A stretch of DNA of 64,000 nucleotides from Chitinophagaceae bacterium (GCA_046296295.1 JBKBLG010000004.1:60187-124186), one strand, 5' to 3'; positions 24,213 through 34,514 are shown, counted from the first letter of the stretch. Notes: generated by a model not told the origin, from the letters alone. Numbers and translations: made by a program.

Positions 24213-25087
24213 TACAATACGTTTAAAATTTGTTCTTTGGCTTTTTCTAATTCGTCTTTCATGAGCACAACAATTTTCTGGATGTCGGCATCGTAGGCTT
24301 TGCTACCGGTAGTGTTAATTTCTCTGCCAATTTCTTGAATAATGAACGATAGTTTTTTGCCCTTACCTTTATCGGGTTCTTGCAGCATAGTTTTGAAATA
24401 CTGCAAATGATTCGATAAACGTACCTGTTCTTCGCTAATATCTATTTTCTCGATATAATAAATTAACTCTTGCTCTAGGCGGTTAGTATCGTAATGTTCA
24501 GGGCCTAATTGCTCTTCGAGCAATTTCACCAAACCTTCTTTGATTTTTGTACGACGATTGGGGGCCAACGCTTGAATAGCAGCTTGGTGTTGGGTTATAG
24601 CGGCAATACGTTGCAACAAATCTGCTTCTAGTGCTGCGCCTTCTTCTTTTCGATGTTGGTTGAGTGCTTCTATGGCCGAAGATAGTACCGGTATAAAACT
24701 ATGATACTCGGCTTCGCTCAATATTTCTGTAGGTGGTGCTACTACTTCCGGCATGCGCAAGATAGCAGCTAAAACCCCCTCCATATTCCAGCCCTTTTCT
24801 GCTGCAATTTGTTGCAGCGGCTCGTAATATGCAGCCACTAAATCGGTATTAATAGCCAACGATTTTGCTGCACCATTTTGTTTTAGATAAATGCTACACT
24901 CTACGCTGCCACGCTCTAAGCTAGCAGCAATACGGTTGCGAATATCAATTTCGTAGGGTTTCAATAAACTGGGCAGTGTAAGCCTAACATCAAGCTGCTT
25001 GCCGTTAAGGCTACGTATGTCTACAATAAAATTTTTATCGCCTATGGTTTGCTCGGCCCTTCCGAAGCCGGTCATTGAAAAAAGCAT
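24212..25087 (-). CDS. yicC: YicC/YloC family endoribonuclease
   Basis: N-terminal MLFSMTGFGRAE...IRSLNGKQLDVRL and C-terminal EIGREINTTGSKA...VVLMKDELEKAKEQILNV are YicC hallmarks. Confidence 0.85.
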   Translation of the reverse strand: MLFSMTGFGRAEQTIGDKNFIVDIRSLNGKQLDVRLTLPSLLKPYEIDIRNRIAASLERGSVECSIYLKQNGAAKSLAINTDLVAAYYEPLQQIAAEKGWNMEGVLAAILRMPEVVAPPTEILSEAEYHSFIPVLSSAIEALNQHRKEEGAALEADLLQRIAAITQHQAAIQALAPNRRTKIKEGLVKLLEEQLGPEHYDTNRLEQELIYYIEKIDISEEQVRLSNHLQYFKTMLQEPDKGKGKKLSFIIQEIGREINTTGSKAYDADIQKIVVLMKDELEKAKEQILNVL

Positions 25088-25325
25088 CCGCAAGTATTTA
25101 GTATGGCAAAGTAAGCAGCTTTAAGCATATCTTTTTGTTATAGGCAAGCGTAACAAACAACAAAACAACCATTGAACTGACTGAAAATATAAAATAACAG
25201 GACGACATATAAACTTAACAGCAGACTTTTTCTGACACGAAATCCCAACACTTCGTGATAACAGCGATGGGCCTTAAAAACATAAATTAGCAGTCTAAAA
25301 AAGAATTCTTATTTAAAAGAGGATA

Positions 25326-26990
25326 ATGGCAAAACAAAAAGCGACCCTTCGACAGGCTCAGGGTAAAAACGAAGAACCCCTCGAAAAACAACTCTGGAAA
25401 GCAGCCGACAAACTCCGCAAGAACATTGATGCTGCGGAATACAAACACATTGTATTGGGGTTAATCTTCCTGAAATATATCTCCGATGCTTTTGAAGAAT
25501 TGTATGCAAAACTAAAAGCAGACGAAGCCAACGGTGCAGACCCCGAAGACAAAGACGAATACAAAGCAGAAAATGTGTTCTTTGTACCGCAGGATGCCCG
25601 ATGGAATTATTTGCAATCGAAAGCCAAACAACCTGAAATCGGAAAGTTTGTGGACGATGCCATGGATGCTATTGAAAAAGAAAATGCTTCCCTCAAAGGC
25701 GTGTTGCCCAAGGTATATGCCCGACAAAATTTGGACCCGACAAGTTTGGGTGAACTGATTGACCTGATTGGCAACATTGCCTTAGGCGATGCCAAAGCAA
25801 GAAGTGCCGATGTGCTCGGACACGTTTTTGAATATTTTCTGGGTGAGTTTGCCTTGGCAGAAGGCAAGAAAGGCGGACAGTTCTACACGCCAAGAAGCGT
25901 GGTGGAATTATTGGTGGAGATGCTGGAACCCTACAAAGGACGAGTGTTTGACCCTTGCTGTGGTTCGGGTGGAATGTTTGTGCAGAGCTTGAAATTTGTT
26001 GATAGCCATGCAGGCCGTGTAAACGATATCTCCATTTACGGACAAGAGAGCAACCAAACCACCTGGCGACTGGCTAAAATGAACCTGGCCATTCGTGGCA
26101 TTGATAGCTCACAGGTGAAATGGAACAACGAAGGTTCTTTCTTAAACGATGCACACAAAGACCTGAAAGCTGATTTTATAATTGCCAATCCACCGTTTAA
26201 TGTGAGTGATTGGGGCGGTGAATTGATGCGGAATGATGGACGTTGGCAATACGGCATACCACCCACAGGCAACGCCAACTTTGCCTGGATGCAACATTTT
26301 ATTTACCACTTAGCACCCAACGGACAAGCTGGTGTGGTGTTGGCAAAAGGTGCTTTGACCTCTAAAACCTCAGGCGAAGGCGAGATTAGAAAAGCACTGG
26401 TTGAAAACGGCTTGATTGATTGCATTGTAAACCTACCGGCCAAATTGTTTTTAAATACCCAGATTCCTGCTGCCTTATGGTTTATGAGCCGCAACCGTAA
26501 AAACGGAAAATTCCACCACCCCGCCACCACAGGTGGCACCCCTCCACGGGAGGGGAATTTTCGAGACCGCAGCAACGAGATTTTATTTATTGATGCCCGC
26601 AACTTGGGCCATTTGATCAACCGCAGAACCCGTGAACTCTCACCAGAAGACATTGCCAAAATTGCCGGCACTTACCACGCCTGGAGAAATTCCCCTCCTT
26701 TGGAGGGGGCAGGGGGTGGTCAATTCCCCCCCACTGGAGGGGTGCCCGAAGGGCGGGGTGGTTACGAAGACATCCCCGGCTTTTGTGCCTCCGCCCCCAT
26801 CAGCAAAGTGAGAGAACTCGACTATGTGCTTACACCGGGCCGCTATGTAGGCTTACCCGATGAAGAAGACGACTTCAATTTTGCCGAACGCTTTACCTGC
26901 TTAAAAGCAGAACTGCAAGCACAGATGGCAGAGGAAACAGAATTAAACGATAGAATCAAAAGGAACTTGCATAAAATTCAAATTATCTAA
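25326..26990 (+). CDS. hsdM: Type I restriction-modification system methyltransferase subunit M (with in-frame repeat insertions)
   Basis: HsdM N-domain [37 protein letters not shown] motif [10 protein letters not shown] and catalytic [17 protein letters not shown]-like sequence upstream. Confidence 0.95.
26515..26559 (-). repeat. GC-rich palindromic REP-like unit, reverse orientation, in frame in hsdM
   Basis: ACCACCCCGCC...CCCCTCC-acg-GGAGGGGAATT, translated as [15 protein letters not shown]. Confidence 0.85.
26688..26762 (+). repeat. REP-like unit doublet, forward, in frame in hsdM
   Basis: AATTCCCCTCC-ttt-GGAGGGG... plus AATTCCCCCCC-act-GGAGGGGTGCCCGAAGGGCGGGGTGGT, translated as [25 protein letters not shown]. 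Confidence 0.9.
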
Positions 26991-27001
26991 TTTTCAATAA
27001 A

Positions 27002-27922
27002 ATGAACTACGACATAAAACTCATTAATAATTTCGAAGGTAAAGGGCGTATTGAACTTGACCGAATGGAATTTTTGGCAAAGCACATAAAAAGCATTGCT
27101 CAAAAGGCTTTACTGCTGCAACTCTATGGCTATAGTAAGGTTTCAATGCCAAAGAACTTAAATAAATATCTGCATGTATTTCTAACACAAACTGCCGGGG
27201 TTGATGGTAATACTATTCTCACGTTGGATGCAGATAATTTTCAAAATATCCTAGTACAGTTAGATTTATTTAAAGAGAAACAAGCTCTAAATACACTTAC
27301 ACCAATGGCTTTAGTGATTAAGTCATTCACTGCTGCATTATATGATGAAGAAGATAAAAATATGATTGATGAACCGCTTATTGATGAATTATTAAAGTTT
27401 AAAAAGTTTTTTCAAACTGATACAGAAAAAGTATTACTTACTAACCGGAGTACAATACCGGAAATTGAATTTTCTCGAAAAGAAATAGATAAAATCGAGA
27501 GCTTATTTAAAACAATACCACAACCACAAAAAACAGTGGTAGCCGGTGTGATTGATGAAATGAAGTTTTCAAGAGAGCAGGTAATTTTAACTACCACTGA
27601 AAATAAAAAGATAGTAGTAATTGTTGCCAAGGAGCTTTTTCAAGACTTAAAGGAGTTTTTTGGACAGGAAATAGCCATCAATGGAATGGCTCATTTTAAG
27701 CCGGGAGGGCAATTATCGTATGTTAAAATGGAAAGCTTTGGCAATGCGGGGAAAGCCGCAAAAATATTATCAAGAAAGCCGGATAAAATGAACATGCAAC
27801 AGCAGATTGCTTTACAAATCAGAGAAGGGAAAAAACGAAATCCAATGGATGAAATCATTGGAACATGGCCCGGAAATGAGACAGACGAAGAATTTGAGAA
27901 AATGCTAAAAGACCTTGACTAA
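27002..27922 (+). CDS. Hypothetical 306-aa protein, putative partner or antitoxin of the downstream PIN nuclease
   Basis: No motif recognised. Its stop overlaps the PIN start (TAATG). Acidic C-terminal tail IIGTWPGNETDEEFEKMLKDLD. Confidence 0.6.
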   Translation: MNYDIKLINNFEGKGRIELDRMEFLAKHIKSIAQKALLLQLYGYSKVSMPKNLNKYLHVFLTQTAGVDGNTILTLDADNFQNILVQLDLFKEKQALNTLTPMALVIKSFTAALYDEEDKNMIDEPLIDELLKFKKFFQTDTEKVLLTNRSTIPEIEFSRKEIDKIESLFKTIPQPQKTVVAGVIDEMKFSREQVILTTTENKKIVVIVAKELFQDLKEFFGQEIAINGMAHFKPGGQLSYVKMESFGNAGKAAKILSRKPDKMNMQQQIALQIREGKKRNPMDEIIGTWPGNETDEEFEKMLKDLD

Positions 27923-28374
27923 TGAAAAACATACTTTTAGACACAAATATCCTCATACACTTAAATAGAGGAAAGGAAAAAGCTCAAAAGGTTCGTGAAT
28001 ATGTGGCGAGCTTAAGCGAACCACAAGTATTTATTTCTGTGGTGAATTTAGCTGAAGTGGAAAGTTTGGTTGTGCAATGGAAAATGCCTGATGAAGCTGT
28101 TAAACGACTTAGGAGCAATATGAACAAATTTGTGTGTATTGATATTGAGCAAAATAATCAGGTTCTGTTAGACGCTTATGTAAATATCGATTGCTACAGC
28201 AAGAGAAAAATTAAAGGACCTGATGGCAAACTTATTCCAAATGGTGCAATTGGAATGAAGAAGAACGACCTCTGGATTGCAGCTACAGCCCATGCTTTAG
28301 ATGCCGTGTTACTTACCACCGATGGAGATTTTGACCACTTAGAAAACCTATATTTTGAACTTAAGAAGTTTTAG
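27922..28374 (+). CDS. PIN-domain nuclease (VapC-like)
   Basis: Conserved acidic positions in ILLDTNILI, NLAEVES, NDLWIAATA and LLTTDGDF, typical of VapC-type PIN toxins. Confidence 0.8.
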   Translation: MKNILLDTNILIHLNRGKEKAQKVREYVASLSEPQVFISVVNLAEVESLVVQWKMPDEAVKRLRSNMNKFVCIDIEQNNQVLLDAYVNIDCYSKRKIKGPDGKLIPNGAIGMKKNDLWIAATAHALDAVLLTTDGDFDHLENLYFELKKF

Positions 28375-28375
28375 C

Positions 28376-29557
28376 ATGAGTGAGTGGAAAGAATATAAAT
28401 TAAAAGATTTGGGAAGAGTTGTTACAGGCAATACTCCATCAAGTAAATTTCCTGAAGAATTTGGAAATGAAATGCCGTTTGTAACACCTTCTGATTATAA
28501 AAATTATAACAAGTGGATTTCGTTTGCTGATAGAAATTTATCTCAAAAAGGAATTGAGAAGTTACAAAGCCGTTTGCTACCTAAAAATTCATTGCTTGTT
28601 ACTTGCATTGGTTCAGATATGGGAAAAGTTGCAATCAATAAAATCCCTGTTATTTCTAATCAGCAAATCAATTCAATAATTCCAAATGAAAATGTTGATG
28701 CTGATTTTCTATACTACAAATTAGTTGAGAGCTATGATGTTTTGAGAATGTATGGAGAAGCAGGAACAGCAGTTCCGATAGTAAATAAGACAGATTTTGA
28801 AAACATTGAAATAGAAATTCCTTCAGAAAAATCCGAGCAAACCGCCATAGCCGAAGTGTTAAGCAGCTTAGACGACAAAATAGACCTGCTGCACCGCCAA
28901 AACGCCACCTTAGAAAAAATGGCCGAAACGCTGTTTAGGCAGTGGTTTGTGGAGGAAGCGAAGGAGGAGTGGGAAGAAGGAACTTTAGATGATATCCTTT
29001 CTGTAAAAGGTGGAACAACCCCAAGTACCGCTGAACCTAGTTATTGGAATGGAACAATTCATTGGACAACACCAAAGGATATTACCAATTTAAACGGATT
29101 ATTTTTATTTGATACCGAAAGAAAAATAACAGAATTGGGCTTATCAAGAATCAGCTCTGGTTTGTTACCCATAGGAACACTCTTAATGACCTCAAGGGCA
29201 CCTGTTGGTGTATTAGCATTTGCAGAAATTCCGTTAGCTATAAATCAAGGTTATATCGCAATTATTGCCAACAAAGGCTATTCAAAAGAATTTATCTACC
29301 TCTGGCTAAAGACAAATATTGATGTAGTGCATAGTTTCTCTAATGGTTCAACTTTTATGGAGATTAGTAAGTCAACTTTTAAAACATTACAGCTACAGAT
29401 TCCTCCAAGTGATGTATTAAATAATTTTCAATCGATTGTAGCCCCCTTATTTACCAAAATAAAATCAAACTCAATCCAAATCCGCACCCTCACCGCCTTG
29501 CGGGATACCTTGTTGCCAAAGTTGATGAGTGGGGAGGTGAGGGTTGAAATGAATTAA
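28376..29557 (+). CDS. hsdS: Type I R-M specificity subunit S
   Basis: Two target-recognition domains are separated by the conserved helix LDDKIDLLHRQNATLEKMAETLFRQWF, and the protein ends in LRDTLLPKLMSGEVRV. The ATG lies 1 nt after the PIN stop. Confidence 0.9.
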   Translation: MSEWKEYKLKDLGRVVTGNTPSSKFPEEFGNEMPFVTPSDYKNYNKWISFADRNLSQKGIEKLQSRLLPKNSLLVTCIGSDMGKVAINKIPVISNQQINSIIPNENVDADFLYYKLVESYDVLRMYGEAGTAVPIVNKTDFENIEIEIPSEKSEQTAIAEVLSSLDDKIDLLHRQNATLEKMAETLFRQWFVEEAKEEWEEGTLDDILSVKGGTTPSTAEPSYWNGTIHWTTPKDITNLNGLFLFDTERKITELGLSRISSGLLPIGTLLMTSRAPVGVLAFAEIPLAINQGYIAIIANKGYSKEFIYLWLKTNIDVVHSFSNGSTFMEISKSTFKTLQLQIPPSDVLNNFQSIVAPLFTKIKSNSIQIRTLTALRDTLLPKLMSGEVRVEMN

Positions 29558-29562
29558 AAAAT

Positions 29563-30141
29563 ATGCAGCAATACAATCCAAATATTCACCATCGCAAATC
29601 CATCCGTTTAAAAGGATACGATTATACGCAGGCAGGATTGTATTTTATTACCATTTGTTGTAACCGTGGGGGCGAATTGCATTCGCCCTTTGGATACATC
29701 GAAAACGGACAAATGATATTGAATGAATACGGACAAATTGCCTATAATGAATGGATGAAAACCCCGGAAATACGACCGAATGTTGAATTGGGGGCATTCA
29801 TCATAATGCCCAACCACATGCACGGTATTATCCGGTTATTGGGTAGGGGCGAATTGCATTCGCCCAATGAAACGGGCATATACGATATGCCCGAACCGCC
29901 CGATAATGGGGGCGTTTGCAAAACGCCCCTACAGTCACCATCACAAACCGTTGGTGCCATTGTTCGTGGTTACAAATCATCGGTTACCAAACGATTGGGT
30001 TTGTTGGGATTCAATGGCAAATTATGGCAACGCAATTATTACGAACACATCATTCGCAACGAACTATCCTATCAAAACATTTCGAATTACATCATCAACA
30101 ATCCTGCAAAATGGCAGGAGGATAAATTTTTTATTGCATGA
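29563..30141 (+). CDS. IS200/IS605-like Y1 (HUH) transposase, REP-associated tyrosine transposase (RAYT)-like
   Basis: HRKSIRLKGYDY..AGLYFITIC, HUH motif MPNHMHGII, and catalytic Tyr region GKLWQRNYYEHIIRNE. No IS ends are visible. The stop overlaps the hsdR start (ATGA). Confidence 0.8.
   Translation: MQQYNPNIHHRKSIRLKGYDYTQAGLYFITICCNRGGELHSPFGYIENGQMILNEYGQIAYNEWMKTPEIRPNVELGAFIIMPNHMHGIIRLLGRGELHSPNETGIYDMPEPPDNGGVCKTPLQSPSQTVGAIVRGYKSSVTKRLGLLGFNGKLWQRNYYEHIIRNELSYQNISNYIINNPAKWQEDKFFIA
29668..29688. repeat. Palindromic hairpin GGGGCGAATTGCATTCGCCC inside the RAYT ORF (copy 1)
   Basis: Identical 20-mer at 29846-29865. Translated in frame as GGELHSP. Confidence 0.85.
29846..29865. repeat. 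Palindromic hairpin GGGGCGAATTGCATTCGCCC inside the RAYT ORF (copy 2)
   Basis: Exact repeat of copy 1. Translated as GRGELHSP. Confidence 0.85.
29909..29929. repeat. Second type of palindromic hairpin (GGGGCGTTTgcaAAACGCCCC) inside the RAYT ORF
   Basis: Imperfect palindrome translated as GGVCKTPLQ, in the variable region between the HUH motif and the Tyr motif. Confidence 0.7.
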
Positions 30142-33100
30142 CCCGCATCAACGAAAATACCATAGAATCCTTTGCCATCGAGTTGCTCGAAAAACTTGGT
30201 TATGCGTATATCTATGCTCCTGATATTGCACCCGAATTCTCCTCCTTTGGAGGGGTGGTCGCAGACCGGGGTGGTCAATTCCCCTCCAATGGAGGGGTGC
30301 CCGAAGGGCGGGGTGGTCAAGATACCCGCGACAGCTATGCACAGGTTTTGTTATTGAACCGATTGCAAAATGCCGTAAAAAGAATCAATCCCGGTATTCC
30401 GGCCGATGCACAGGCAGAAGCCATCAAAGAAATTCAGCGTATTGCCTCACCTGATTTGCTTGCCAACAATGAAACCTTTCATCGTTTATTAACCGAAGGT
30501 ATTCCCGTTTCAAAACGTGTGGATGGAGACGACCGGGGCGACAGAGTTTGGCTGATAGATTTTAAAAATCCGCACAACAACGATTTTGTGGTAGCCAATC
30601 AATTCACCATCATTGAAAACGGAAACAACAAACGACCTGATGTAATTCTTTTTGTGAATGGAATTCCGTTGGTGGTCATCGAACTAAAAAATGCAGCAGA
30701 CGAAAACACCACCATCCATTCAGCCTTCAAGCAAATAGAAACGTATAAAGCCATCATTCCAAGCCTGTTTACTTACAATGGTTTTGTAGTTATTTCAGAT
30801 GGTCTGGAAGCCAAAGCAGGTTCCATCTCTGCGGGCTTTAGTCGTTACATGGCTTGGAAATCGGCTGACGGCAAAGCCGAAGCGTCGCATTTGGTGAGTC
30901 AGTTAGAAACCTTGATTCAAGGCATGCTGAACAAAGCAACCTTGATTGACTTAATCAGGCATTTCATTGTTTTTGAAAAAACTACAAAGCAAGAAAATCA
31001 TGGGAATCATGAAATCAAGCAAATCACGGTTCAGACAACTAAAAAATTAGCAGCTTATCATCAATACTATGCAGTAAACAGAGCCGTTGAATCAACACTT
31101 CGTGCAGCAGGATTTAATTCCCCTCCTTTGGAGGGGTGGTCGCAGACCGGGGTAGTTCATTCCCCTCCTGCGGAAGGATGGCAGACGCAGTCTGACGGGG
31201 TGGTAAAAAGAGCCAGTAAAAACTACTTCGAACTTCCCTACAACCCTAAACTCAAAGAAAGGGCAAGAGAACTTCGACAGGCAGGAAATCTATCGGAAGT
31301 ACTTTTCTGGAATCAGGTGAAGAACAAACAATTTAAAGGCTTCGATTTCGACAGGCAGAAAATCATAGGAAACTACATTGTTGACTTTTATTGCAGTAAT
31401 TGCCAGGTGGTAATTGAAATTGATGGCTGTAGTCACGATGATAAGGTGGAATATGATGCGGAAAGGGATTCCTATTTAAACTCCTTGGGATTGACTGTTA
31501 TTCATATTCCCGTAGCAGATGTATTGCAGCGAATGGGAAGTGTGATGGAAATGCTTTCTAACCACCCCGCCTTGCAGGCACCCCTCCAAGGGAGGGGAAT
31601 TGACCACCCCGCCCTATCGGGAACCCCTCCTGAGGAGGGGAATTTGGTGCAGGAATCACCCAAAAGTTATGGCCTGCCCGGAGTGAAGAACCAACCTATT
31701 GGCGATAAAAAGGGCGGCGTTGTTTGGCATACGCAGGGGAGCGGAAAATCATTATCCATGGTTTTCTACACAGGGAAAATCGTTTTGGCTTTAGATAATC
31801 CAACAGTACTTGTTATTACAGACCGCAATGATTTGGACGACCAACTGTTTGACACCTTTGCGGCATCGAAACAGCTATTAAGACAAGAGCCTGTTCAGGC
31901 AGAGGATAGAAACCATTTAAAAGAATTATTAAAAGTAGCCTCTGGCGGTGTGGTGTTTACAACCGTTCAGAAATTTCAACCCGAAGAAGGCAATGTGTAT
32001 GAATTACTCTCCGACAGAAAAAACATCGTCGTCATTGCCGATGAAGCGCACAGAACGCAATACGGCTTTAAAGCAAAAACCCTTGATGCCAAAGACGAAA
32101 AAGGAAATGTAGTCGGTAAGAAAATCGCTTACGGTTTTGCAAAGTATATGCGGGATGCCTTGCCCAATGCCACGTATTTAGGCTTTACAGGAACACCCAT
32201 TGAAAATACAGACGTAAATACTCCAGCAGTTTTTGGAAACTATGTGGACATTTACGACATAGCCCAAGCCGTTGAAGATGGCGCAACCGTTCGCATTTAT
32301 TACGAAAGCCGATTGGCAAAAGTGAACCTGAGCGAAGAAGGCAAACAATTAGTTGAAGAGCTTGACGATGAACTGGAACAAGAATTCCCCTCCTCTGGAG
32401 GGGTGGTCGAAGACCGGGGTGGTTCAAGAGCAAAAGCCAAATGGACACAGTTGGAAGCCTTGGTGGGCAGTGAAAACAGAATTAAGAACATCGCCAAAGA
32501 TATTGTTTCGCACTTTAGTCAACGACAGGAAGTATTTGAAGGCAAAGGAATGATTGTGTGCATGAGTCGCAGAATTGCAGCCGATTTATACGAAGCAATC
32601 ATTGCCCTAAAACCAGAATGGCATTCAGACGACTTAAACAAAGGGGCGATAAAAGTGGTCATGACTTCCGCATCATCTGACGGTCCGAAAATTTCTAAAC
32701 ATCATACCACCAAAGAACAAAGAAGAATACTCGCTGAAAGAATGAAAAATCCCGATAACGAATTACAATTGGTCATCGTTCGGGATATGTGGCTCACAGG
32801 TTTTGACGCACCAAGTATACACACCCTTTACATTGACAAACCAATGAAAGGACATAATTTGATGCAAGCTATTGCAAGAGTAAACCGTGTTTACAAAGAC
32901 AAGCCGGGCGGTTTGATTGTAGATTATTTAGGTATTGCAGCCGATTTGAAAAAAGCACTGGCCTTTTATTCTGATGCAGGTGGAAAGGGCGACCCAACCA
33001 TTTTGCAGGAACAAGCCGTTCAATTGATGTTAGAGAAACTGGAAGTTGTTTCTCAAATGTTTAATGAACTCCCCTCCCGTGGAGGGGTGTCTGCAGGACG

Positions 33101-34013
33101 GGGTGGTTTTCCGTATGAAAGCTACTTTCAAGCCGACACTTCAAAAAAACTATCCATGATTCTGGCAGCAGAAGAGCACATTTTAGGATTGGAAGATGGA
33201 AAGAAGCGATACATCAACGAAGTAACAGCATTGTCAAAAGCCTTTGCCATTGCCATTCCGCATGAGCAGGCAATGGATGCAAAAGACGAAGTTTCTTTTT
33301 TCCAAGCCGTAAAAGCAAGATTGGCAAAGTTTGACGGAACAGGTTCAGGGAAAACAGACGAAGAAATTGAAACCACCATTCGCCAAGTCATTGACAAAGC
33401 GCTGGTCTCTGAACAGGTCATTGATGTTTTTGATGCCGCAGGAATAAAAAAACCAGATATTTCAATTTTATCCGAAGAGTTCTTAATGGAACTCAAAGGA
33501 ATGGAACACAAAAATGTGGCCTTGGAAGTTTTGAAAAAACTCTTGAACGATGAAATAAAATCAAGAGCCAAAAAGAACCTGGTTAAGAGCAGGACATTCT
33601 TAGAAATGTTAGAAAACTCCATCAAGAAATACCACAACAAAATCCTGACAGCAGCCGAAGTAATTGAAGAACTCATCAATCTTAGTAAAGAGATTGTTGA
33701 AATGGACAATGAAGCCAAGCACATGGGCTTGTCAGACTTTGAATATGCTTTTTACACCGCAGTAGCCAGCAACGACAGCGCAAGAGAACTCATGCAACAA
33801 GACAAATTGAGAGAACTTGCCGTAGTGCTGACAGAAACCATAAGACAAAACGCATCCATTGACTGGACCATTAAAGAAAGTGTAAAAGCTAAATTGAAAG
33901 TTGCAGTAAAAAGAATATTGAGAAAATACGGTTATCCGCCCGACATGCAAATGTTAGCTACAGAAACCGTTTTAAAACAAGCCGAAATGATCGCAAACGA
34001 AATAACGGCATAA
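30138..34013 (+). CDS. hsdR: Type I restriction enzyme subunit R (1291 aa, expanded by in-frame insertions)
   Basis: N-terminal PD-(D/E)xK block DVILFVNGIPLVVIELK, helicase motif I GGVVWHTQGSGKS, motif II VVIADEAHRTQ and motif VI LMQAIARVNR. About 250 extra residues come from repeat units and a DUF559-like module. Confidence 0.95.
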   Translation: MTRINENTIESFAIELLEKLGYAYIYAPDIAPEFSSFGGVVADRGGQFPSNGGVPEGRGGQDTRDSYAQVLLLNRLQNAVKRINPGIPADAQAEAIKEIQRIASPDLLANNETFHRLLTEGIPVSKRVDGDDRGDRVWLIDFKNPHNNDFVVANQFTIIENGNNKRPDVILFVNGIPLVVIELKNAADENTTIHSAFKQIETYKAIIPSLFTYNGFVVISDGLEAKAGSISAGFSRYMAWKSADGKAEASHLVSQLETLIQGMLNKATLIDLIRHFIVFEKTTKQENHGNHEIKQITVQTTKKLAAYHQYYAVNRAVESTLRAAGFNSPPLEGWSQTGVVHSPPAEGWQTQSDGVVKRASKNYFELPYNPKLKERARELRQAGNLSEVLFWNQVKNKQFKGFDFDRQKIIGNYIVDFYCSNCQVVIEIDGCSHDDKVEYDAERDSYLNSLGLTVIHIPVADVLQRMGSVMEMLSNHPALQAPLQGRGIDHPALSGTPPEEGNLVQESPKSYGLPGVKNQPIGDKKGGVVWHTQGSGKSLSMVFYTGKIVLALDNPTVLVITDRNDLDDQLFDTFAASKQLLRQEPVQAEDRNHLKELLKVASGGVVFTTVQKFQPEEGNVYELLSDRKNIVVIADEAHRTQYGFKAKTLDAKDEKGNVVGKKIAYGFAKYMRDALPNATYLGFTGTPIENTDVNTPAVFGNYVDIYDIAQAVEDGATVRIYYESRLAKVNLSEEGKQLVEELDDELEQEFPSSGGVVEDRGGSRAKAKWTQLEALVGSENRIKNIAKDIVSHFSQRQEVFEGKGMIVCMSRRIAADLYEAIIALKPEWHSDDLNKGAIKVVMTSASSDGPKISKHHTTKEQRRILAERMKNPDNELQLVIVRDMWLTGFDAPSIHTLYIDKPMKGHNLMQAIARVNRVYKDKPGGLIVDYLGIAADLKKALAFYSDAGGKGDPTILQEQAVQLMLEKLEVVSQMFNELPSRGGVSAGRGGFPYESYFQADTSKKLSMILAAEEHILGLEDGKKRYINEVTALSKAFAIAIPHEQAMDAKDEVSFFQAVKARLAKFDGTGSGKTDEEIETTIRQVIDKALVSEQVIDVFDAAGIKKPDISILSEEFLMELKGMEHKNVALEVLKKLLNDEIKSRAKKNLVKSRTFLEMLENSIKKYHNKILTAAEVIEELINLSKEIVEMDNEAKHMGLSDFEYAFYTAVASNDSARELMQQDKLRELAVVLTETIRQNASIDWTIKESVKAKLKVAVKRILRKYGYPPDMQMLATETVLKQAEMIANEITA
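30235..30318 (+). repeat. Tandem doublet of 42-nt REP-like units, in frame in hsdR
   Basis: AATTCTCCTCCtttGGAGGGGTGGTCGCAGACCGGGGTGGTC plus AATTCCCCTCCaatGGAGGGGTGCCCGAAGGGCGGGGTGGTC. Each is 42 nt (14 codons). Translated as [29 protein letters not shown]. Confidence 0.95.
31116..31204 (+). repeat. REP-like unit doublet (forward), left flank of the DUF559 cassette
   Basis: AATTCCCCTCCtttGGAGGGGTGGTCGCAGACCGGGGTAGT plus a more diverged second unit ending GACGGGGTGGT. Translated as NSPPLEGWSQTGVVHSPPAEGWQTQSDGVV. Confidence 0.9.
31205..31559 (+). other. DUF559 (Vsr-like PD-(D/E)xK endonuclease-fold) module embedded in frame in hsdR
   Basis: ELPYNPKLKERARELRQ...SEVLFWNQVKNKQFKGFDFDRQKIIGNYIVDFYC....VVIEIDGCSHDDKVEYDAERDSYLNSLGLTVIHI matches the standalone DUF559 protein pattern (R.LR..T.aE..LW...FrRQ..ig.yivDF.c....lviElDG..H...yD..R...L...G..v). 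Confidence 0.8.
31560..31644 (-). repeat. REP-like unit doublet (reverse), right flank of the DUF559 cassette
   Basis: AACCACCCCGCC..CCCCTCCaagGGAGGGGAATT plus GACCACCCCGCC..CCCCTCCtgaGGAGGGGAATT. Translated as NHPALQAPLQGRGIDHPALSGTPPEEGN. Confidence 0.9.
32383..32423 (+). repeat. Single REP-like unit, in frame in hsdR
   Basis: AATTCCCCTCCtctGGAGGGGTGGTCGAAGACCGGGGTGGT, translated as EFPSSGGVVEDRGG. Confidence 0.9.
33067..33107 (+). repeat. Single REP-like unit (5' end diverged), in frame in hsdR
   Basis: AACTCCCCTCCcgtGGAGGGGTGTCTGCAGGACGGGGTGGT, translated as ELPSRGGVSAGRGG. Confidence 0.85.
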
Positions 34014-34343
34014 GTCACACCAGTCAAGACTAAGCCCAAACCTGCAAAAGAGCTTCCGCCTCAACGAGCCTGAAAGAATTTCAAAATATTTTTCCAACCC
34101 TTCAAAAAATACCCCCCGATACACAAGCGCCACAAAAAAGCACCGATTTGACACAAACGAACGATATAAAAATGGTCTGTTCATGACAGACAAGAACGCC
34201 AGCCTAGAACAGCGGTTGGGGGTAATGGCGGGTACAATGGTAATATTGAAATGTAGTTTTTCAAATCAACATTTGCAGTGTTTTGACAGATTTGTGCTCC
34301 AAAATTCGCCAATAGGCAAAGCTGCAAAACATTAGAAGAAATG

Positions 34344-34412
34344 CCTTACGGTAAATGTGCTTCACAAGCACTTATGAATTCATTGTTATATGTTACTTCA
34401 TTTGCCGTAAGG
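34344..34412. repeat. Inverted pair of 14-mers (CCTTACGGTAAATG ... CATTTGCCGTAAGG), 41-nt spacer
   Basis: First native-type motif after the R-M island, about 100 nt upstream of the MFS transporter ATG. Confidence 0.85.
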
Positions 34413-34514
34413 CTACTTAAAAAAACATTAAAGGCCACAGTATCTTTAAATTGTAGTTGAAAGCTAGCAGCTTGGGCGGTGGGATTGTATCTTTCCAAAT
34501 GAACAAGCTTGCTT

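Follow-up and report, generated by a model that had tools for sequence, protein, structure and literature searches.

In-frame hairpin repeats and a DUF559 nuclease cassette in the Type I restriction-modification genes of a Chitinophagaceae bacterium

Repeat units and a nuclease cassette in hsdM and hsdR

The stretch of DNA considered here, called the window throughout, is 64,000 nt long and comes from a Chitinophagaceae bacterium (GCA_046296295.1, JBKBLG010000004.1:60187-124186). It carries a Type I restriction-modification (R-M) operon, recognized by the occurrence together in one operon of the diagnostic Pfam domains of HsdM, HsdS, and HsdR. Two of its genes, hsdM and hsdR, contain copies of a short GC-rich hairpin unit, and in hsdR such units also flank a DUF559 nuclease domain (Table 1). 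An earlier sequence-only reading of the window had mapped about eleven units resembling repetitive extragenic palindromes (REPs) to these two genes, with their orientations, and had found none elsewhere; pattern counts agree. The hairpin core CCCCTCC-N3-GGAGGGG, with up to two mismatches allowed, matches at 11 places in the 64 kb, none of them outside 26539-33087; shuffled sequence would lead one to expect 0.02. The tail CGGGGTGGT has nine matches, every one within those units (0.13 expected), and neither pattern occurs outside the units in the rest of the window. Both open reading frames (ORFs) are uninterrupted, as had also been claimed. HsdR combines HSDR_N, SWI2_SNF2, T1R_D3-like, and T1RH-like_C Pfam domains with DUF559, and HsdM is 100% identical to a protein (P0241) from a Chitinophagaceae metagenome-assembled genome (MAG). 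A look-up of the exact HsdR sequence found no recorded counterpart.

The palindromic units lie in frame within these ORFs and are translated with them. Reading in several forward frames and in reverse had been reported, and four of the six possible frames were indeed found in use: NSPPLEGWSQTGVV and FPSxGGVxxxRGG forward, and xHPALxxPLQGRGI and TPPxEGN in reverse, with NSPPLEGW.. among the unit peptides. The seven units outside the cassette, at five hsdM and hsdR loops, are solo or tandem non-autonomous copies. One of them, U2, is truncated and has counterparts in a short class of 31-34 nt in other genomes. No match to Rfam was obtained for positions 25000-34500 at E values up to 1.

Table 1. 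Features of the hsd operon, in window coordinates
Feature	Position	Strand	Description
hsdM	25326-26990	+	554 aa; host of U1-U3; Pfam HsdM_N and N6_Mtase
21-nt insert ACCCTTCGACAGGCTCAGGGT	25344-25364	+	hsdM N-terminus
U1	26515-26559	-	single reverse unit; HsdM loop site M1; 15-residue peptide
U2	26688-26721	+	truncated, first hairpin and tail without second hairpin; HsdM site M2, with U3
U3	26722-26762	+	full unit, second hairpin GCCCgaaGGGC; HsdM site M2, with U2
306-aa ORF and PIN/VapC-like gene	27002-28374	+	between hsdM and hsdS
hsdS	28375-29440
REP-associated tyrosine transposase (RAYT)-like Y1 gene	29563-30141	+	HUH motif HMH; NCBIfam REP_Tyr_transpos 55.9 bits, below cut-off
Palindromes in RAYT-like gene	about 29668-29688, 29843-29865, 29908-29932		three, in frame; two GTAG-tagged
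hsdR	30138-34013	+	1291 aa; host of U4-U11 and DUF559 cassette
U4	30235-30276	+	42 nt; tandem with U5; frame FPSxGGV; HsdR site R1
U5	30277-30318	+	42 nt; tandem with U4; frame FPSxGGV; HsdR site R1
Cassette	31116-31644	+	units(+), DUF559, units(-); 529 nt; replaces 27-nt native loop
U6	31116-31157	+	first unit of putative left inverted terminal repeat of cassette
U7	31158-31204	+	second unit of putative left inverted terminal repeat
DUF559 domain	31205-31559	+	predicted Vsr-like PD-(D/E)XK nuclease; HsdR aa 371-472; Pfam PF04480, E 7.5e-29
U8	31560-31601	-	first unit of putative right inverted terminal repeat
U9	31602-31644	-	second unit of putative right inverted terminal repeat
U10	32383-32423	+	single unit; HsdR site R3, end of SWI2_SNF2 domain
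U11	33067-33107	+	single unit, head AACT; HsdR site R4

The DUF559 domain was absent from the sequence-only reading. It is in frame within HsdR, between the nuclease and motor domains, and fills exactly the gap that separates U6-U7, the forward doublet, from the reverse doublet U8-U9. These doublets had been described as oppositely oriented copies; the orientation stands, but the pair forms the inverted ends of a cassette, of which the doublets would be the inverted terminal repeats. The unit tails adjoin the domain directly, GGGGTGGT encoding the ..GVV ahead of DUF559 and ACCACCCCG its C-terminal ..HPA(L). In an alignment to L121, a relative without units, the cassette starts and stops precisely at the AATTCCCCTCC heads. 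Pfam gave no match to an intein or Hint domain in hsdR, and the ORF is continuous through the junctions ..GF/NSPP.. and ..EGN/LVQ.. No splicing motifs were found either, the cassette flanks being hairpin-encoded Pro/Gly peptides.

The DUF559 domain matches PDB entry 3HRL, itself a DUF559 structure (E 2e-16). In an AlphaFold model of HsdR residues 320-515, the predicted local distance difference test (pLDDT) score of the domain is 86-97, and the unit-encoded flanks score 45-62 and are without secondary structure. The model shows these segments as disordered Pro/Gly-rich linkers in what would be permissive surface loops. When the domain model was compared with known structures by Foldseek, it aligned with 3HRL at a template modeling (TM) score of 0.80 and with the catalytic domain of I-Bth0305I (3R3P) at 0.75-0.77 (root-mean-square deviation 2.2-2.4 Å), followed by PvuRts1I/AbaSI and Vsr (1VSR, TM 0.52). 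Vsr, DUF559, and 3R3P form one clade in a classification of PD-(D/E)XK enzymes (PMC3424549). Embedded DUF559 copies retain the nuclease motifs FDRQ, VDF, E-x-D, and H, of which D, E-x-D, and H are invariant. A Vsr-like PD-(D/E)XK catalytic fold with conserved acidic and histidine residues is therefore predicted for the domain.

Empty and filled sites among relatives

Comparison with HsdM and HsdR orthologues that lack the units had been proposed as a check, and L121, a metagenomic contig, supplies such a comparison. It carries the matching operon (hsdM, 306-aa ORF, PIN, hsdS, and hsdR) without units and without DUF559. Nucleotide identity to the window is 92-96% across the operon (94.6% in hsdM and 92.3% in hsdR), and the L121 HsdR is 1079 aa long. 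Six sites differ, and at each of them L121 has native loop sequence, a short segment of which is replaced in the window by one or more units, with net gains of 48, 60, 75, 501, 24, and 39 nt. The empty M1 site reads GGAAAATTC/AGAGACC and the empty cassette site (R2) reads GGATTTACTTTAGATAGAGAAACGCCATTGAATATGGTG, and at M2 a native LDGK segment stands in the place of U2 and U3. Native loops are also conserved in 10 clean orthologues (e.g., GFT[VL]EHETPLSMVMESP at the cassette site), and being clean is therefore the ancestral state. At the level of sequence comparison, the units and the cassette are shown to be secondary to their host genes.

The flanks of the operon in L121 are unrelated to those in the window. 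Since the operon alone is common to both, it must be horizontally mobile, and the units and cassette travel with it. This bears on the earlier claim that the units are concentrated in defense genes, which holds for in-frame copies generally; within the window, however, their confinement to the hsd genes is a consequence of the operon's horizontal acquisition. Of the hsd operons that bear DUF559, the closest is on contig L123 (13996-23714; HsdR 89% identical), beside the phage-like genes PhageMin_Tail and DUF6712, which suggests a prophage or phage-adjacent location for that copy.

Occupancy was counted in the 120 best homologues of each protein. The cassette site of HsdR holds DUF559 in 110 homologues and is clean in 10, R1 holds one to four units in about 50, and R4 is occupied in 47. 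In HsdM, inserts are present at M1 in 58 homologues and at M2 in 41, as forward units (in two frames), reverse units, or forward and reverse units together, in one to four copies. Site M1, for example, has a reverse unit in the window and a forward unit in L123 and L118. Altogether, HsdM and HsdR relatives carry from 0 to 10 copies at common loops, in various frames and both orientations. The sequence-only reading had proposed a mobile hairpin family, a claim that would fail if the peptides themselves were conserved in unrelated proteins. That check favors an element at the DNA level, as shown by the unit-free L121 and by the differing frames and orientations at the same HsdM loops.

Presence and absence at the same site also distinguish close host alleles, as in the window and L121. 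In one pair of genes with 97.2% nucleotide identity (P0277 and P0327), a 19-nt native segment is swapped for a 43-nt reverse unit, and proteins with backbones that are 99-100% identical carry nine versus 10 tandem units. Thus, units and cassette are polymorphic among near-identical alleles. The HsdR pairs P0166 and P0167, and P0157 and P0164, have 100% identical backbones, yet one member of each pair has a unit more than the other in tandem arrays that reach 10 units upstream of DUF559, and on this evidence tandem unit arrays appear to behave like minisatellites over very short time scales. Concerted evolution of units within one protein gives a weak signal (identical peptides from the second hairpin at 0.20 versus 0.10).

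Immediately outside the units there is just a preference for A-rich sequence ahead of AATT and for T/A behind the tail. A role for AATT as the insertion target on either strand was considered, as it would explain the two M1 orientations, but the other empty sites of L121 are without AATT, and the idea stays a lead. At other sites, several HsdR homologues (P0173, P0189, P0219, and P0233) and some metagenome loci contain a GIY-YIG nuclease domain (PF01541) that is likewise in frame, and the peptides on either side of it are of the kind that other GC-rich palindromes encode (PVCVQRTGS and SVSLRAPHR). The HsdR gene family may therefore have a general tendency to take up small nuclease genes in frame.

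The unit family, its DUF559 partner, and the rest of the operon

The general form of the unit is AATT, an invariant hairpin CCCCTCC-N3-GGAGGGG (H1), TG, a covarying second hairpin (H2), and (A)CGGGGTGGT. Single-strand folding yields two adjacent hairpins in most window units. H1 pairs CCCCTCC with GGAGGGG around a 3-nt loop, and H2 is shorter (e.g., GGTCgcaGACC, GCCCgaaGGGC, CAGACgcaGTCTG, and GCCACCtgtGGTGGC). The folding significance of individual units is modest (z -1.2 to -3.4), and covariation is stronger evidence for the structure than the thermodynamics of single units. Across the family, whose members range from 31 to 55 nt, H1, the TG linker, and the G-rich tail are near-invariant, and H2 is free to vary in sequence and length (61 distinct stems of 3-9 bp) with pairing kept. 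At least 4 bp are formed by 86% of distinct H2 segments versus 38% of shuffles. The covariation score is 0.235 in the 41-nt class (0.100 ± 0.012 when shuffled) and 0.258 in the 47-nt class (0.065 ± 0.014), and none of 500 shuffles scored as high in either. Two-sided changes affect three of four H2 pairs in the former class and six of seven in the latter.

The H2 stems also carry information on the form in which the unit acts. They contain 546 Watson-Crick pairs versus 31 G-T pairs (5%). Triloops on the G-rich strand are mostly GAA, GCA, AAA, or GTA, with essentially none of the complements TTC, TGC, and TAC, and some other H2 loops are GNRA-like tetraloops. Triloops of the C-GNA-G type form unusually stable DNA mini-hairpins. 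Because the triloops are strand-asymmetric, wobble pairs are scarce, and units occur in both orientations relative to host genes, we infer that the unit probably acts as a single-stranded DNA form rather than as an mRNA signal. Its sequence is likewise well suited to translation, as 96 of 191 units have no stop codon in any of the six frames, versus 1.4% of random 42-mers, which fits the earlier suggestion that the family survives where the reading frame is preserved.

To map the family more widely, an exact pattern was scanned against one genome per species, and at least 120 stretches matched. Among the matches listed are Chryseobacterium (many species), Flavobacterium, Fibrobacter, Chlorobi, Acidobacteria, Pseudanabaena and other cyanobacteria, Oscillospiraceae, Clostridium, Patescibacteria, Anaerolineae, Planctomycetes, Serratia, Advenella, Nitrosomonadales, and others, so that Bacteroidota, Cyanobacteria, Proteobacteria, Firmicutes, Planctomycetes, and further phyla are represented. 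A genome-wide tally of intergenic and intragenic copies had been suggested; among these matches, open frames of 150 codons or more contain just 61 of 180 units, and most copies fall outside long ORFs. Close pairs are arranged head-to-head in 22 cases, tail-to-tail in 10, and in tandem in nine. In one orthologous intergenic spacer of Chryseobacterium, a unit is present in one species and the site is empty in two.

Phages were considered as the main vector and rejected, since 2.9 million viral contigs gave 12 stretches with a unit and one with a full cassette. A complete cassette of unit(+), DUF559 (61% identical), and unit(-) is located at 57-503 of an IMG/VR contig, L135. The idea that all units belong to an R-M neighborhood was likewise rejected, because R-M homologues are found in just 10 of the 120 listed unit loci. 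The R-M bias is a property of in-frame copies and cassettes.

A search with the cassette peptide returned 3840 homologues, of which the best 120 are 60-84% identical. Named sources include Bacteroidota, Cyanobacteria (Brunnivagina and Prochlorothrix), Nitrosomonas, Gallionella, Desulfuromonas, and Pelotomaculum. Most of the homologues listed have NSPPLEGWQAKPDGVV-type peptides ahead of DUF559 and HPAL..TPPxEGN behind it. At the DNA level, DUF559 has a forward unit upstream and/or a reverse unit downstream in 17 of 20 genome loci. Of 71 metagenome loci, 48 show units in this inverted arrangement, 34 of them on both sides, and in most of the related loci a forward unit directly precedes DUF559. 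Conversely, when ORFs within 2.5 kb of units were clustered, DUF559 was found in 20 of the 120 listed loci and the next family in five; no transposase family recurs in this clustering. Unit variants are also common to dispersed and DUF559-flanking copies, such as the AT-rich long H2 stems of Chryseobacterium and the CAGGC-type stem of cyanobacteria. The candidacy of DUF559 as the specific protein partner of the hairpin unit is well supported by these associations.

Cassettes or in-frame units were found in HsdR, HsdM, HsdS, Type ISP/IIG, and Type III Mod proteins, and in one non-R-M protein of Chryseobacterium. By Pfam, 37 long cluster representatives include the R-M families Type_ISP_C (12), Methylase_S (seven), Eco57I (four), MmeI_Mtase (three), and N6_N4_Mtase (two), together with the non-R-M hosts QueA (three), iPGM (two), Mur ligase (two), fumarase (one), and a few others. 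The 27 cassettes embedded in metagenome genes, an independent sample in which R-M proteins likewise dominate, are in HsdR (eight), N6_N4_Mtase (seven), the Eco57I, N6_Mtase, and MmeI families (three or four each), and HsdS (three), with QueA (two) and fumarase (one) outside R-M. Conserved blocks of QueA and fumarase are split by the cassette, which has unit peptides on either flank, much as an intein would split them. DUF559 domains from Mod and ISP hosts are 78-87% identical to HsdR-embedded ones, which have a median identity of 79% among themselves. The Mod and ISP domains therefore nest within the HsdR-embedded diversity, which points to movement between host genes.

Other parts of the operon vary as well. 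The 306-aa ORF, for which Pfam, NCBIfam, and PHROG gave no match, and the PIN/VapC-like gene retain 93-100% nucleotide identity in L121 and look like a fixed accessory pair of the Type I operon. In hsdS, the two target-recognition domains (TRDs) are just 40-55% identical in nucleotide sequence to those of L121, as against 82-97% for the conserved parts at the center and the termini, which is the pattern that classic TRD swapping would leave in an operon that is otherwise near-identical. The 21-nt insert at the hsdM N-terminus (ACCCTTCGACAGGCTCAGGGT, stem ACCCT/AGGGT, peptide LRQAQGK) is missing from L121 and L123, and LRQAQGK, ARQATGK, or PQQAAAK occurs there in six of the 120 HsdM homologues. 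It is apparently a third kind of small in-frame GC-rich insert within one operon. The space between hsdS and hsdR, which holds the RAYT-like gene here and SLATT_6 and SMODS genes plus a 46-aa ORF in L121 (8455-9984), is a putative variable cargo site. The three palindromes of the RAYT-like gene (GGGGCGAATTGCATTCGCCC / GGGGGCGTTTGCAAAACGCCCC) are translated as GGELHSP, GRGELHSP, and GGVCKTP, so that the putative transposase gene seems to harbor a REP-type element of its own.

Mobility, rival explanations, and known systems

We consider it probable that the units represent a widely distributed two-hairpin repeat, similar to REPs and to MITEs (miniature inverted-repeat transposable elements), that is partnered with a homing-endonuclease-like DUF559 cassette and is tolerated in the form of Pro/Gly-rich linkers in permissive loops. 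In the mechanism we propose, the predicted DUF559 nuclease would recognize the hairpin or the empty target loop and nick or cleave it, after which the cassette or an end unit would be copied in by homing-like repair synthesis, or by a single-strand hairpin route, without target-site duplication. The repair-copying step fits because native loop segments are replaced and target-site duplication was not found. Tandem arrays would then grow and shrink by slippage. An in-frame insertion would allow the nuclease to be expressed as part of the host protein, and selection would purge frame-breaking copies and leave frame-preserving ones in permissive loops. R-M genes may be the main hosts because cells can dispense with them, they are modular, and lineages often exchange them, and this exchange would supply the encounters between filled and empty sites that the element needs.

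Several observations weigh against this proposal. Among the matches listed, DUF559 is found in just about 16% of unit-bearing 8-kb loci, and the distribution of the unit is drawn from at least 120 stretches in a scan of one genome per species. Units replace native loop segments instead of inserting cleanly, and no flanking direct repeat above background, as expected of a target-site duplication, was detected. Allelic recombination could be an alternative source of presence and absence. Across homologues, the units at R1, R3, and R4 of HsdR always point forward and keep a single frame, a constancy that old one-time insertions passed down with the gene could also produce. The DUF559 motifs could be conserved through a benefit to the host in the R-M enzyme rather than through selfish activity, and we infer both the nuclease action of DUF559 and the mechanism of mobility from sequence and structural models.

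The main rival explanation is an old domain fusion, in which DUF559 was recruited once to an HsdR lineage, the Pro/Gly segments are inherited linkers that vary by slippage and allelic recombination, and the domain, no longer mobile, serves the restriction enzyme. The presence of DUF559 at one site in 110 of the 120 best HsdR homologues, the nearest relatives of the window domain (86-91% identity) being all HsdR-embedded, the conserved catalytic motifs, and the constant orientation and frame at R1, R3, and R4 would all follow. Nevertheless, we regard this explanation as unlikely. An inherited linker would not be expected as extragenic DNA in many phyla, nor in four frames and both orientations at shared HsdM loops. 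The cassette is also found in Type ISP, Type III Mod, HsdS, QueA, and fumarase, the domains of other hosts interleave with HsdR copies, and linker function does not account for the covariation of H2 at the DNA level.

The sequence-only reading had raised the possibility that mRNA hairpins modulate R-M expression. In a fuller version of this idea, the units would act in hsd mRNAs by pausing, by control of stability, or by sequestering a Shine-Dalgarno-like GGAGG, and would be kept for tuning R-M expression. Hairpin covariation is compatible with RNA structure, H1 does pair GGAGG with CCUCC, and GNRA-like tetraloops would be at home in RNA. However, units lie in both orientations relative to the transcription of their host genes, which makes a general role of this kind unlikely, and the triloop asymmetry tracks the strand of the unit rather than that of the gene. 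Together with the rarity of G-T pairs (5%), the location of most copies elsewhere outside long ORFs, and the lack of an Rfam match, these facts render an RNA-level role improbable.

It was also necessary to consider whether the units are ordinary REPs or REPINs mobilized by a RAYT-type Y1 transposase, such as the product of the gene that ends about 100 nt upstream of U4, with DUF559 as a passenger flanked by chance. The predominance of head-to-head doublets elsewhere resembles REPINs, the failure to find target-site duplication resembles IS200/IS605-type chemistry, and strand-asymmetric triloops point to single-stranded DNA. We nonetheless judge this alternative improbable. A tblastn search with the RAYT-like protein found no homologue in the 120 listed unit loci, although remote RAYTs were not searched by profile, and no recurrent transposase family accompanies the units. 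The RAYT-like gene has its own, different GTAG-tagged palindromes, its slot is occupied by other genes in L121, and the units carry neither a GTAG nor a CGTC tag. RAYT was therefore rejected as the unit partner. Finally, an assembly or sequencing artefact, which the sequence-only reading had named as a way to fail, has a negligible chance of being correct, because the unit recurs in isolate genomes, complete chromosomes, and hundreds of independent assemblies.

A broader proposal, which we advance only tentatively, is that the hairpin repeat and DUF559 together constitute an undescribed class of selfish element: a non-splicing DUF559 cassette with structured hairpin ends active as single strands, which invades chiefly R-M genes in frame, persists as a host-internal domain, moves from phylum to phylum, and gives rise to solo units that turn into Pro/Gly linkers. 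Its partnership would resemble that of REPs and RAYTs, built on a different nuclease superfamily and combined with the lifestyle of a homing endonuclease. Full-text literature searches by names, concepts, and sequence or peptide strings returned no prior description of the hairpin unit, of a connection between it and DUF559, or of DUF559 cassettes lying in frame within R-M genes, with coverage of subscription journals thin enough that prior work is possible.

If the proposal is true, Vsr-like PD-(D/E)XK nucleases would be a second enzyme class partnering bacterial hairpin repeats, RAYTs being the main partners described so far. It would also mean that a homing-endonuclease-like gene can persist in genes without an intron or intein by means of its own stop-free, linker-encoding ends. 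Furthermore, a very common oddity of annotation would be explained, namely that NSPPLEGW.., FPSxGGV.., or TPPxEGN peptides occur in thousands of proteins annotated as 'very-short-patch-repair endonuclease' or DUF559 and in R-M subunits. Leads would follow on why R-M genes are preferred hosts and on how inserts affect restriction activity, and the near-invariant 42-nt unit could be a handy marker for horizontal transfer of defense genes.

Among known systems, the units most obviously call to mind REPs and REPINs with their RAYTs. They are short GC-rich palindromic repeats with many dispersed and mainly extragenic copies per genome, inverted doublets are a common arrangement, a single-copy nuclease gene lies between inverted repeat copies, target-site duplication is not seen, and there are hints of single-strand recognition. 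However, the REP-like identity given to them by the sequence-only reading did not survive in its plain form. The unit has two hairpins and a G-rich tail, its consensus (AATT-CCCCTCC..GGAGGGG-TG-H2-CGGGGTGGT) has no GTAG or CGTC tag, with a GACG after H2 confined to the 47-55 nt classes, and no RAYT was found in the 120 listed loci. The partner here is a Vsr-like PD-(D/E)XK DUF559 protein rather than an HUH/Y1 transposase, the unit is nearly invariant across phyla whereas REPs are lineage-specific, and the nuclease gene itself lies in frame within host genes.

Rickettsia palindromic elements (RPEs), which are 100-150 bp long and confined to Rickettsia, and intragenic REPs offer precedents for palindromes that lie in frame in ORFs as singles, dimers, or groups, are translated, and are tolerated in modular proteins. 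The units, at 31-55 nt, of different sequence, and in a Chitinophagaceae MAG among many phyla, fall outside the RPE family. What further separates them from both precedents is the dedicated nuclease cassette and the strong R-M bias. The intragenic REPs described by Di Nocera et al. (2013; PMC3733652) are concentrated in replication and repair genes, and their CGTC type is without a dedicated enzyme.

Vsr-like homing endonucleases reside in introns, inteins, and fractured genes (PMC3239194; PMC2677866), and a DUF559 gene is treated as belonging to the EDxHD family in one genome paper (PMC9403480). The DUF559 cassette shares with these enzymes and with inteins a compact nuclease ORF of Vsr-like fold inside conserved genes, same-site presence and absence among close alleles, and patchy spread across phyla. 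Unlike them, it has no intron, intein, split-intein, Hint, or splicing motifs, and is simply translated as an internal domain with hairpin-encoded linkers and many solo hairpin copies.

IS200/IS605 elements likewise have subterminal hairpins and insert without duplication, but no Y1 transposase or TnpB is involved here. MITEs are comparable as abundant short non-autonomous derivatives of an autonomous element; a solo unit, however, is a single end module rather than a sequence bounded by terminal inverted repeats, and it lacks a target-site duplication. The GC clusters and 'byp' hairpins of AT-rich yeast mitochondrial genes are either bypassed by ribosomes or located in non-coding DNA. They resemble the units in that GC-rich hairpins have invaded the coding sequence of an AT-rich genome. 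In contrast to these hairpins, the units described here are stop-free and the ORFs are continuous, and for this reason read-through translation is the simplest reading of how the host genes accommodate them.

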